From: Escherichia phage vB_EcoP_ShWW44
Sequence record: PQ900156.1
Length of the DNA stretch: 64,000 bases
Reading direction: 5' to 3' (one strand)
The translations under genes and the position numbers were made by a program. Below the pieces are notes generated by a model. The model saw only the letters and a list, made by a program, of their open reading frames with translations. It was not told where the DNA came from and ran no database searches. Shown piece after piece: positions 958 through 27,351 of the stretch (positions are counted from its first letter, which is position 1; each line of letters starts with the position of its first letter).

Positions 958-979
958 GGGTATCCTTTTTTGGGGTTAT

Positions 980-1005
980 AGCCCTCCTTAGCGAGGGCTT
1001 TCTTG
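980..1005 (+). terminator. intrinsic terminator
   Basis: AGCCCTC-cttagc-GAGGGCT hairpin followed by TTTCTT. Confidence 0.6.
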
Positions 1006-1024
1006 TATCTATAGGAGAGTAAAA

Positions 1025-1339
1025 ATGGCGCAAAAATTGCGTGTATGGCACATTCCCCAAGTGCCAATGAAGGCATTTCAAGTAGAGACTAATAGTCTTC
1101 AGGAAGCTGTTAAGATTAAGAATGCGTTAGCAGATTATGATCTATTCCAATATGAGAACAATGTCAAAGGCGATTATGCTAATGCTAACGGTATTGAGAT
1201 GTGGGATGAGACTATCTCCGATCAAGAACTAGTGGAGATGGGTTTAGAAGACCGTTGGGTAGATTGGTATATTGAAACTGAAGATGGTTTCTTTGATGAC
1301 CCAGAAGAGTATCTGAATTATCTAATCAAGCAAGTATGA
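1025..1339 (+). CDS. hypothetical acidic protein (104 aa)
   Basis: ORF with AGGAGAG RBS; Asp/Glu-rich. Confidence 0.6.
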   Translation: MAQKLRVWHIPQVPMKAFQVETNSLQEAVKIKNALADYDLFQYENNVKGDYANANGIEMWDETISDQELVEMGLEDRWVDWYIETEDGFFDDPEEYLNYLIKQV

Positions 1340-1385
1340 TTGCTTTATTTGGGGTTATAAACCCTGAAATGAAACCCTCAAGTTT

Positions 1386-2067: not shown

Positions 2068-2397
2068 ATGAAAACTTTACTTAAAGGTATTGCAGTAGCT
2101 GCGCTGATAGCTTTGGTTCCAAATGCACAAGCAGTTAAACCAGAACCAATTCTGGAAGGTGCTCAGGCTTACCTGGATGACACCCGTGATGCATTCGGAC
2201 AAGGGTTCTTCATGGGCAGTATGATCTCTTACATCGAGAACACAGATAACTGTGTACCGGATGGTATGAAGTATTCAGACATTCTGCCTAAGATTGCCAA
2301 AGTAGTTATTTATGACTCTGCAATCCTCAAATTGAAGAATACATCCCAAATTGTTGTGTACTCAGTACACAAGGCATATCCCTGCACCAAATCTTAA
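2068..2397 (+). CDS. secreted/periplasmic protein with N-terminal signal peptide
   Basis: MKTLLKGIAVAALIALVPNAQA has the n/h/c layout of a Sec signal with an AQA cleavage motif. Confidence 0.55.
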   Translation: MKTLLKGIAVAALIALVPNAQAVKPEPILEGAQAYLDDTRDAFGQGFFMGSMISYIENTDNCVPDGMKYSDILPKIAKVVIYDSAILKLKNTSQIVVYSVHKAYPCTKS

Positions 2398-23303: not shown

Positions 23304-24107
23304 ATGTCATTGTTCAGTAATCTGAAAGAAAAAACCAAAAACGTTGAAGCTGTTAAAGACTCCCTGGGTGGTGGTGGCTTCGGTGCAAAAGAGTCCGATA
23401 TCTACACTGGTACTGTAAAAGTAGCTTACGTAGGCAAAGCTGACTCTGGTGCAGACTGGATGCAGTTAATCATCGAAGACCTGAAGAACTCAGATAGCGT
23501 ACCTGCCGGTGAGTTCCGTGCTCAGGTGTACTTCACTTCTGGTAATGCTAAAGGTAACAAGCCGACTTACGAGAAGAACGGTAAAGAATACTTCCTGCCT
23601 GGCTACACTGTCATTAATGACATGATGCTGATGGCTACTGGTACTGAACTGCCTGAAGCAGACTTCGAAGAGAAGATTGTTAAAGTCTACGATTTCGATG
23701 CTAAAGCAGAAGTTAATAAGTCTGTCATGGTTCCAGTTGAACTGGTTGGGCAGACTGTTACCTTCGCTCTGGAAAAGGTTCTGGAATCCAAGCAGGTTAA
23801 GGGTGACAACGGTTACGTTGATTCCGGTGAAACTCGTGAAGTAAACGAGATTCAGAAAGTGTTTCACCCGGAACTGCTGGTCACAGTCGTCGAGGCTCAG
23901 GAAGCAGAGAAGGCTGAGAAAGAACTGACCCCAGAACTGGCTGTATTCTATGCAGCATGGTTAGAGAAGAACAAAGGCAAGACTCGTGATAAGACCAAGG
24001 GTTCTGCTGGTGGTAATGGTAAAGGTGGCTTACCTCCTAAACCAGGTGCAGGTGCTGGCACGGGTACTGCTCCTGCTGGTGGTAAATCACTGTTCGGTAA
24101 ACGTTAA
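23304..24107 (+). CDS. single-stranded DNA-binding protein (N4 gp45-like by size and position)
   Basis: 267 aa, Gly-rich C-terminal tail; sits after primase and ATPase as in N4. Confidence 0.45.
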   Translation: MSLFSNLKEKTKNVEAVKDSLGGGGFGAKESDIYTGTVKVAYVGKADSGADWMQLIIEDLKNSDSVPAGEFRAQVYFTSGNAKGNKPTYEKNGKEYFLPGYTVINDMMLMATGTELPEADFEEKIVKVYDFDAKAEVNKSVMVPVELVGQTVTFALEKVLESKQVKGDNGYVDSGETREVNEIQKVFHPELLVTVVEAQEAEKAEKELTPELAVFYAAWLEKNKGKTRDKTKGSAGGNGKGGLPPKPGAGAGTGTAPAGGKSLFGKR

Positions 24108-24662: not shown

Positions 24663-25106
24663 ATGCAAATCATTTTGAACCAGTCCGAAGTAGAAGCTGC
24701 TGTACAGGCTTATGTAGATGATCAAATCAATCTTGCTGGTGACATTAATATTGTCATCAATGCAGATGGTACTGCCTCTGTTGGTATCAACGAAGAGGTA
24801 AGTCACGAAGATGACTCCCCACCCGTGGTAGAGAAGAAAACTCGTCGTTCTCGTAAGAACCCACAAGAAGCTAAACACCGTCCGGTAGAACCAGAGCCGG
24901 AAGAAGTAGTTGGAGAGCTAAAGGTGGAAGAAACCCAGACCTCTACTGGTGGTCCGAACGAGAGTTCTACGCCGGAACCTGAAGAAGAAGCAGTAGCTGA
25001 ACCAGAAGCACAAGAAGAAGTTGTGCAGGAAGAGGTTAAGGCTGAAGAACCGGCAGAGAAACCTGCTACTAAGCCTTCACTGTTCGCTGGCCTAAAACGT
25101 AGTTAA
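24663..25106 (+). CDS. highly acidic, low-complexity protein (147 aa)
   Basis: Glu/Pro-rich repeats (PEPEE, EEVVQEEV). Confidence 0.55.
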   Translation: MQIILNQSEVEAAVQAYVDDQINLAGDINIVINADGTASVGINEEVSHEDDSPPVVEKKTRRSRKNPQEAKHRPVEPEPEEVVGELKVEETQTSTGGPNESSTPEPEEEAVAEPEAQEEVVQEEVKAEEPAEKPATKPSLFAGLKRS

Positions 25107-25508: not shown

Positions 25509-25907
25509 TATCGTGAAGGGTTCTGTTAGAATCCTTTGAGATAGGAACTCCTATCATAACCTTTCTTAACTTAATCCTTGCCGTATGGCACTGACGCTAG
25601 GGTTTATGCCCATCCGTCAGGTAGACTATTTTAAGAATGGGTTATCACAGAAAATGTAAAGCAACATTCGGGTTAATCAATGGCCTCTCTCTATAGGGGC
25701 CATTTCTGAATCTTAGGCTATATCCCAAAGGTTAGTATCTTTGGGATAAGGCTTCAGATCCCTTATAAACTAACGCTCATGTTGAGCATAACACTAACCC
25801 CTACTGGCGGGTAATTCGATACGCTAGTCCTACAGCATCGAATTGTTAGGTCTTACATGCAACATAGGGTATAAAGGGAGGATTCGTCCCCTCCCTCCTA
25901 TTATAAT

Positions 25908-25977
25908 GGTCGGGGTAGCACGTAGGCATGTGCAGAAGGTCGCTACTTCTCTCGCTGGTTCGAATCCAGCCCCTGAC
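25908..25977 (+). tRNA. probable tRNA (isotype unresolved; anticodon loop read as GTCGCTA)
   Basis: 7-bp acceptor stem GTCGGGG/CCCTGAC, D-stem GCAC/GTGC with GG in loop, perfect stem AGAAG/CTTCT, T-arm GCTGG-TTCGAAT-CCAGC; TATAAT element just upstream; variable loop only 3 nt. Confidence 0.45.
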
Positions 25978-26433
25978 CTACTGACATCCTATCAATGAGT
26001 ACATTAGGCTAACGTGCGGAGGTTTACACTGTAGCCGGTGTAGGTGGAGAAGACGGCAGGGTAGCTACCTGTGCTTAGTGTACTCTTTGATAGTTTTCGT
26101 AAGCGATTATGCGGTTTTTTAGAAATGAACCAATAACATAAATGCAAACGATGATGTTGTTCTGATGGCGGCGTAATAGCCTGTAAGTCAGCAAGGTCTT
26201 CCTATTCCTTGTAAATAAATTCGGCGCAGTGGCCCGCTGTAATTAATAATGGGCACACAACAGGTAAGAGCATTGGGTAATGTCAGCCTTGGTTCGAAGT
26301 CGAAAGACATGCGGTAATACCCAGCCAAAGTTCCAGTGCTCTTTCCGTTGTGGAAATGCAAGCACAACAAGTCCAGACGATATCTGAGTGACTTTAAAAA
26401 CAGATGGAGCCAGGTGGAATCCCTGGCAATCTA

Positions 26434-26499
26434 TTCCGGTGTAGGTACTAGTGTCGTGCACGGCATGAGTGTTCTGGTTCGAGTCCAGACGCCGGAACC
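26434..26499 (+). ncRNA. tRNA-like element: acceptor stem + T-arm + encoded CCA, no D or anticodon arm found
   Basis: 5' TCCGGTG pairs 3' CGCCGGA (one G-U); T-arm TCTGG-TTCGAGT-CCAGA; discriminator A then CCA; only 31 nt between acceptor and T-stem. Confidence 0.35.
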
Positions 26500-26597
26500 A
26501 ATTACCAGTTGCACGAGATGGCTTGGCATGTTCAAGTTTGGACTAAGTGTGACACCGCTAGATTGGAGGGCTGCTGCGGTAAGCTATAGACTCCAAC

Positions 26598-26625
26598 CGG
26601 GGGTTCGAATCCCTCACTGGTAACC
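26598..26625 (+). ncRNA. tRNA-like 3' module (T-arm + acceptor 3' strand + CCA)
   Basis: GGGGG-TTCGAAT-CCCTC, then ACTGGTA-A-CCA; only exact 5' partner TACCAGT is at 26502-26508, about 90 nt upstream. Confidence 0.3.
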
Positions 26626-26713
26626 AATTCAAAGTAGCATTGCACTAATCCATCCCGGAGTTCAAAGACCAAACATGGAGCAGTGCTACTTTGAATTAGA
26701 AGAATTAAGGTGG

Positions 26714-26752
26714 GTCTGGTGAAGTAGATAGGGTTCGATTCCCTCCGGTAGA
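26714..26752 (+). ncRNA. tRNA-like minihelix (acceptor-like stem + T-arm)
   Basis: TCTGGTG ... TAGGG-TTCGATT-CCCTC ... CGGTAGA; acceptor arms resemble those of element 26434-26499. Confidence 0.25.
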
Positions 26753-26794
26753 GTAATCTACTAGCGTGCTTGGTGCATGAATAAGACTTAATAC

Positions 26795-26822
26795 TGGTGG
26801 TTCGATTCCATCCCCCACTACC
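26795..26822 (+). ncRNA. tRNA-like 3' module (T-arm + acceptor 3' strand + CCA)
   Basis: GGTGG-TTCGATT-CCATC, then CCCCACT-A-CCA; no complementary 5' strand found within 80 nt. Confidence 0.25.
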
Positions 26823-27351
26823 AATTTGAGGTGTAACAGTTAAATCCAGTTGCCGGAAGTGCTATTCTAGATACGCTGCCAATGTGTGAACGGTAAGGCT
26901 GTACAGGACTCGGACTCCCACCTCAAACCAAAGTCGCCAGGTACTTATGGCAAACGGGTAGTAACGAACTAGTCATTCGTCAAACGCCCAACCTATTACG
27001 AGTCAGCAAGAACGCCTTCACTTAAACTTAAACAATATGAAAGCTTAACGCAGATAATATGTAGGGGTATGTAAGGATTGCGAAGAAGGAGCCAGTTAAA
27101 GCCTGGCATGACTCACCTATTAATAGAGAACATAGTCCTGATTGCATTGCACTCTAAAGACAATGCCGGTGAGACAGTCCGGCACTCTAATTATTGTAAA
27201 CATACCCACTGACGAGTGGGTATGAGTATGAGCAGACTATAATGCTCAAGTACAGTTATCTATTATCGGACTATCAATCCTGTTTGCTGGTACAAGCACC
27301 GGTGGTAATAGTTAACTGGCCTAGTCTCGTTAGCTGCGTTAAAGCTACTGA

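Follow-up and report, generated by a model that had tools for sequence, protein, structure and literature searches.

The reading that we prefer for the two acidic open reading frames (ORFs) of Escherichia phage vB_EcoP_ShWW44, and to which we would give roughly even chances, is that the 104-aa product of positions 1025-1339 (+ strand) is a stand-alone counter-defense factor, and that the 147-aa product of positions 24663-25106 (+ strand), an orthologue of N4 gp47, is a core accessory factor of replication or late transcription. For the shorter protein, which belongs to the P22 gp17/N4 gp18 family, counter-defense is the most likely role as judged from secondary literature on P22. The label 'superinfection exclusion' that this family bears in Pfam, PHROGs, and RefSeq is probably misleading and probably inverts the role of the family, because the sources on P22 gp17 describe escape from exclusion. 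The analysis covered the whole stretch of 64,000 nucleotides (sequence record PQ900156.1), which is called the window below.

An N4-like coliphage origin of the window is indicated by its first 6 kb, which are 94% identical to Escherichia phage St11Ph5 (Schitoviridae, Enquatrovirinae, Gamaleyavirus) and match 58 N4-like records. The layout is likewise typical of an N4-like coliphage, with early and middle genes running rightward and late genes running leftward. A preliminary description of this DNA had singled out the two ORFs as encoding strongly acidic proteins and possible DNA mimics, and had proposed pI, disorder, and structure prediction as checks. The coordinates, the + strand, and the acidity were all confirmed, with computed pI values of 4.12 for the 104-aa protein and 4.33 for the 147-aa protein. 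The former has a charge of -14.4 at pH 7 with 21% D+E and 7.7% K+R, and the latter a charge of -20.2 with 28 Glu and 13 Pro residues. In a comparison set of 65 ORFs obtained from the window by greedy choice, no other product is as negatively charged per residue as these two (-0.138 each), and a pI below 4.5 was computed for three of the 65 products. The wording 'low complexity', which also came from the preliminary description, suits the 147-aa product, whose sequence entropy reaches its minimum at residues ~76-136 (net charge -18), but it does not suit the 104-aa product, which is aromatic-rich (14 W/Y/F residues) and predicted to be well folded. Structure prediction separated the two proteins in the same way, as the AlphaFold2 model of the 104-aa protein is a compact alpha/beta structure (pLDDT 92.8, pTM 0.81), whereas the acidic part of the 147-aa protein is predicted to be disordered. 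Judged from their sequences, both ORFs are genuine genes, because a Pfam match of 152 bits and some 1,200 cluster representatives support the 104-aa product, and the 147-aa product recurs at an unchanged position in 68 phage records. The ORF at 1025-1339 starts with ATG and is preceded by AGGAGAG 8 nt upstream.

By its database matches, the 104-aa protein falls into a known family and is itself catalogued there already. It scores E=5.8e-45 and 151.9 bits against Pfam PF17420 ('GP17, superinfection exclusion gene product 17'), the gathering cut-off being 25 bits, and this match spans protein residues 4-100 and profile positions 2-96 of 98. It also matches phrog_1510 (E=6.1e-50), which is placed by PHROGs in the category 'moron, auxiliary metabolic gene and host takeover'. 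P22 gene 17 is 60.8% identical over residues 4-100, or 93% of the query (tblastn; blastp E=8.5e-45), and N4 gp18, which carries the GenBank note 'similar to P22 gp17', is 64.6% identical. The product of St11Ph5_00026 (gp26, YP_010659874.1) is 100% identical, and none of the 315 coding nucleotides differ. Homologues are borne by 324 phage records that include P22-like phages, Stx phages, Ackermannviridae (Det7 gp56), and N4-like phages, and the gene is thus common to temperate and virulent phages, a T4-like contig among them. A profile search of the family, clustered at 50% identity, returned 1,195 representatives, and homologues are present in bacterial genomes from Enterobacterales, Betaproteobacteria, Firmicutes, Actinobacteria, candidate-phyla bacteria, and others. 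The acidity of the protein is a family trait rather than noise, because the great majority of homologues have a pI below 5 (119 of 120 close homologues and ~90% of the 148 representatives of clusters at 50% identity); the median charge of the homologues is -12 to -15. NCBIfam and PADLOC scans of both acidic proteins gave nothing meaningful, and a PDB sequence search with the 104-aa protein gave no match at E<=10. Our literature search yielded no paper on N4 gp18 and no anti-defense paper on P22 gp17. The 'gp17' of the IbfA paper was set aside as another gp17, a holin, and the CRISPRi-ART paper does not mention N4.

Conservation within the family is strongest in the first ~62 residues, which form the conserved core and hold the motifs VW[HW]IPQVP, YD.FQ, and K[PG]DY.N..G in the 104-aa protein. 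Thirteen columns are invariant in an alignment of 46 sequences (V7, P11, Q12, P14, F18, L35, Y38, D39, F41, Q42, K48, D50, and G56), and all thirteen are kept in the window protein. The C-terminal part is variable and has a net charge of -11 over 42 residues, compared with -3 in the core. A fold search with the AlphaFold2 model found neither a solved structure nor a known DNA mimic that resembles it. No hydrophobic segment was seen on sequence inspection (GRAVY -0.58), and this single-domain protein is therefore presumably cytoplasmic; a membrane segment or signal peptide, which is a trait of the SieA, SieB, and T4 Imm/Sp type, was also absent by the same inspection.

The gene belongs to the rightward, middle-gene part of the genome, where it follows a head-decoration gene (N4 gp17 homologue, 79-957) and precedes small ORFs, and it occupies a 379-bp cassette (window positions 964-1342) that is bounded by two copies of a 15-nt direct repeat on the + strand with a spacing of 379 nt. 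The left copy (TTTTTTGGGGTTATA) lies at 966-980 and the right copy (TTATTTGGGGTTATA) at 1345-1359, the latter being the only copy kept in relatives that lack the gene, and the exact 11-mer TTGGGGTTATA occurs twice in the whole window, at 970 and 1349. A terminator-like hairpin (980-999, +) stands after the head-decoration gene and directly upstream of the ORF, and a strong terminator-like hairpin (1386-1408, +; 9-bp stem with 6 GC pairs) with a T7 run to 1415 stands downstream of it. The alignments with G7C and ECBP1 contain a clean 379-bp gap with one repeat copy left. Moreover, a block of 462 nt (974-1435, +) is without any difference from St11Ph5, whereas the surrounding 6 kb are 94% identical and the next-longest identical run in that region is 175 nt. 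In a 601-nt comparison, the gene was carried by about 13 Gamaleyavirus records (9 phages), Moo19, N4, and N4-like Enquatroviruses, and most other Gamaleyavirus records matched over the flanks only. From these observations we conclude that the gene is dispensable and is gained or lost at the repeats, and the 462-nt identical block suggests that the segment was exchanged recently by recombination. Such cassette behavior is typical of accessory, host-range-type genes.

Secondary passages in three papers (PMC4837284, PMC6486243, PMC9409062) state that P22 requires gp17 to get past the exclusion system of a resident Fels prophage, although those in PMC4837284 disagree with those in PMC6486243 and PMC9409062 as to whether Fels-1 or Fels-2 is the excluding prophage. 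In the mechanism that we propose, the 104-aa protein would bind and neutralize an exclusion or abortive-infection protein encoded by the host or a prophage, as reported for the P22 prototype. The conserved N-terminal ~62 residues would serve as the recognition core; most of the negative charge (net -11) sits in the variable C-terminal ~40 residues. Dispensable as it is, the gene travels on the 379-bp cassette, which is gained, lost, and exchanged among related phages, and the protein itself probably does not exclude other phages, its database name notwithstanding. The primary papers behind the P22 phenotype are reportedly Susskind & Botstein 1978 and Semerjian et al. 1989. Fels-2 encodes, in the interval from its portal gene to replication gene A, the 565-aa protein STM2723.1 (L016:22639-24336), which matches PADLOC AbiU (E=2.7e-112) and Pfam AIPR (E=8.8e-43) and whose position we take to correspond to the P2 tin/old defense hotspot. 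Ten accessory ORFs of Fels-1 gave no defense match against PADLOC, with generic helicase similarity only. Co-location reasoning would thus make the Fels-2 AbiU/AIPR protein a speculative candidate target of the P22 gp17 family. A bolder extension, which we regard as decidedly improbable, is that PF17420 comprises widespread AbiU/AIPR inhibitors with an unseen fold, in which the N-terminal core would recognize the target and the acidic C-terminal half would fill its nucleic-acid-binding site in a form of partial mimicry.

The proposal of the preliminary description that one or both proteins are DNA mimics is in our judgment quite unlikely; their carboxylates would stand in for the DNA backbone and inhibit type I restriction enzymes or nucleoid proteins, in the manner of Ocr and ArdA. 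This proposal draws on the net charge of -14 of the 104-aa protein, the charge density of which is within the range of small known DNA mimics, on the family-wide conservation of this acidity, mostly in the C-terminal 42 residues, on a spread over many phyla that would be expected if the family were aimed at generic DNA-binding proteins, and on the location of the P22 gene about 620 nt from ral. However, a high and conserved negative charge is needed for mimicry without being specific to it. A Pfam scan of the 104-aa protein at E<=1 gave GP17 only and neither Ocr (PF08684) nor ArdA (PF07275), and the model matched the fold of no solved mimic. Of the invariant residues, most are aromatic, Pro, Gln, or Lys and just two are Asp, and to judge from the alignment this has the appearance of a surface for specific binding, not of an array of charges. 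In the passages cited above, the phenotype described for P22 is prophage exclusion and not restriction. Furthermore, the BASEL study describes pronounced RM resistance of the Gamaleyavirus Bas96 (PMC11990801). Bas96 gave a flanks-only match of 223 nt, and because this pattern equals that of G7C, from which the gene is absent by alignment, Bas96 apparently lacks the gene as well; it is RM-resistant nonetheless, and RM resistance in the genus would therefore be independent of the gene. For the 147-aa protein, the predicted disorder of the acidic part and the standing of gp47 as a core gene of the replication module, near the SSB gene, speak against mimicry. As such, the part of the original proposal that can be retained is an acidic anti-immunity protein of 104 aa, by homology with P22 gp17, whereas its specific part, a DNA mimic that blocks restriction enzymes or nucleoid proteins, gained no support, as Bas96 and the lack of an Ocr or ArdA match indicate, and its extension to the 147-aa protein is less fitting than the caveat on SSB partners.

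The surroundings of the gene in other phages bear on the remaining alternatives. In P22 and Serratia prophages it is one of the genes of the early leftward operon, close to N, ral, cIII, kil, and abc1/2, and in the T4-like contig its neighbors are small ORFs, most of them without annotation. Clustering of the neighbors in 35 genomic loci found no recurrent partner gene except a repressor-like gene in 5 loci, and the extra domains in longer family members are unrelated to one another (RNA polymerase alpha-CTD-like, N4 gp49/Sf6 gp66, DUF6166, or none); the 104-aa protein thus appears to work alone. These fusions were rejected as a clue to function, as they are heterogeneous and probably read-through gene calls. 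The wide taxonomic spread of the family could equally mean that its target is a conserved host protein and not a defense system. A role in host takeover, in which the 104-aa protein would bind RNA polymerase, a nucleoid protein, a protease adaptor, or a similarly conserved host protein and the Fels phenotype would be indirect, agrees with this very broad distribution, with the location in the early/middle gene region, with the strongly conserved core, and with the PHROGs category. We nevertheless hold it to be unlikely, since most closely related Gamaleyaviruses lack the gene and grow well without it, which is a pattern more typical of host-specific counter-defense, and since the sole phenotype that the cited passages report for the family is prophage-dependent. 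It is also conceivable, if very unlikely, that the aromatic and polar core binds an immune signaling nucleotide and the protein works as a sponge of the Tad/Acb2 type. It is indeed small, has no partner gene, and clusters invariant Tyr, Phe, Trp, Lys, Gln, Asn, and Asp within residues 1-62, but a strongly negative protein would be an odd binder of anionic nucleotides, no sequence or fold likeness to known sponges was found, and our literature search returned nothing in support. The literal sense of the label, by which the protein would keep superinfecting phages out of the infected cell, strikes us as extremely unlikely. The name itself, as it stands in three databases, and the small membrane protein and SPFH lipoprotein that neighbor the gene in N4 and Det7 would favor it, but the passages behind the name describe escape from exclusion. 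Moreover, the Sie, Imm, and Sp exclusion proteins are membrane proteins, unlike the 104-aa protein with its lack of a membrane segment or signal peptide. Stand-alone counter-defense therefore remains the reading that we prefer for the 104-aa protein.

Two neighborhoods deserve a separate description. In N4 (gp18-gp19-gp20, L010:3128-4552) and Det7 (gp56-gp58, L009:3477-4794), which belong to unrelated phage families, the family gene is followed by two others, one for a membrane protein of ~69 aa and one for an SPFH/Band 7 lipoprotein, the Pfam matches of the latter being E=1e-23 and 1e-12. The partners in the two trios have no BLAST similarity between the two phages, and the trio is absent from the window. 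These neighbors might hint at an envelope-related role for the family. The product of window positions 2068-2397 (+) is 109 aa long, has at its N-terminus what resembles a signal peptide, and matches Rap1a, an immunity protein of type VI secretion, weakly and below threshold (Pfam E=0.004; 18 bits, cut-off 27.7). In phage 24-32N, the annotated features of the 6-kb region that matches include a 'tai4 protein'. This product may be a phage-borne periplasmic immunity-like protein.

As its gene neighborhood and conserved segments suggest, the 147-aa protein most likely serves replication or late transcription as an accessory factor. It matches phrog_7641, a family of unknown function (E=3.9e-69), and gp47 can be considered core in the N4-like group because of its presence in those 68 phage records. 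The gene order gp44 (ATPase)-gp45 (SSB)-gp46 (RuvC-like)-gp47 is common to St11Ph5, G7C, Moo19, KP8, and N4, and toward the end of the rightward replication block gp47 comes directly after gp46, with small ORFs and a tRNA gene downstream. That gene is a single tRNA-Ala (anticodon CGC; 25908-25979, +) inside an ORF-poor stretch of ~1.7 kb (~25560-27240) that separates the replication module from the virion RNA polymerase gene, and Moo19 and KP8 have at least five tRNAs at the equivalent place. Window gp47 is 36% identical to N4 gp47, with the N-terminal domain and a basic patch being alignable. Our literature search returned nothing on N4 gp47, and the matches of gp47 to phrog_14238 (RusA-like) and to a short-chain dehydrogenase (SDR) were dismissed as weak and due to low complexity or chance.

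Four parts can be distinguished in gp47, all on the + strand. Residues 1-45 (24663-24797) are predicted to form a small folded N-terminal domain with a helix at 7-24 and a beta-hairpin at 28-42 (pLDDT ~80), and this domain is conserved in N4, KP8, Moo19, and Jgk1. Residues 53-75 (24819-24887) make up a conserved segment, PPVVEKKTRRSRKNPQEAKHRPV, with a basic core at 56-75 (net +6), which appears in the cross-genus alignment as PPVVEKKTRR...EAKHRPV. Residues 76-136 (24888-25070) form an acidic linker (net -18) with a high content of Glu, Pro, Val, and Ala that is predicted to be disordered and that varies between genera in both sequence and length. Residues 137-147 (25071-25103) are a C-terminal tip, KPSLFAGLKRS, which the alignment shows to be conserved across genera as KPSLFA[GN]LKR, the N4 tip (KPNLLCLQV) being more diverged. 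The AlphaFold2 model of gp47, which was made from a shallow alignment (pLDDT 62) and is usable for the pattern of order and disorder only, has the helix-plus-hairpin domain, otherwise one short helix, and a pLDDT < 50 for most of residues 83-130.

The C-terminal tip of gp47 resembles that of the SSB. By pattern match, gp45 (CDS 23304-24107) ends in KSLFGKR (24084-24104, +), and this tip is conserved as KSLFGK[RK] in all five phages aligned. The pattern SLF.{0,1}G.{0,1}K[RK] has only two matches in the six-frame translation of the window, namely the gp45 and gp47 tips, and both lie at most one residue from a stop codon, with 0.02 matches expected by chance for a pattern that was defined after its matches were seen. 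In N4, the C-terminus of the SSB (N4SSB) is essential for the activation of late transcription through the beta' subunit of RNA polymerase (PMC4496689). Given this requirement and the likeness of the two tips, gp47 may share the partner of the SSB or compete for it. The preliminary description had added, as a caveat, that acidic disordered regions also occur in SSB partners, and gp47 fits that caveat better than it fits anti-restriction, in view of its disordered linker, its SSB-adjacent module, and its SSB-like tip.

The PF17420 family is large (~1,200 clusters at 50% identity, in many phyla), confidently folded, and without structural relatives, and the 'superinfection exclusion' label has spread with it to hundreds of phage genomes, including those of phage-therapy candidates. 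The AbiU/AIPR gene of Fels-2 offers a concrete candidate target, and the presence/absence polymorphism among Gamaleyaviruses constitutes a ready-made isogenic test system.

Among known systems, the product of P22 gene 17 is like the 104-aa protein in its full-length homology, equal length, invariant motifs, and acidity, and in being encoded by a small early/middle accessory gene. However, P22 is a temperate lambdoid phage in which the gene has another neighborhood, whereas the present phage is a virulent N4-like podovirus. The genes for N4 gp18 and St11Ph5 gp26 immediately follow the head-decoration gene (N4 gp17), a position orthologous to that of the 104-aa ORF, although N4 gp18 is followed by gp19 (membrane protein) and gp20 (SPFH lipoprotein) and the window ORF by unrelated small ORFs. 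Ocr, ArdA, T4 Arn, and Ugi-type mimics are, like the 104-aa protein, small and strongly negative, with production before the late phase and a probable anti-immunity role, but the 104-aa protein has no sequence or fold kinship with them, its conserved residues are not mainly carboxylates, and the phenotype attached to its family is prophage exclusion. For the 147-aa protein, the closest parallels are N4 gp47, which occupies the same position after gp44-gp45-gp46, and the C-terminal activation region of N4SSB, where the SSB tip KSLFGKR resembles the KPSLFAGLKR of window gp47.
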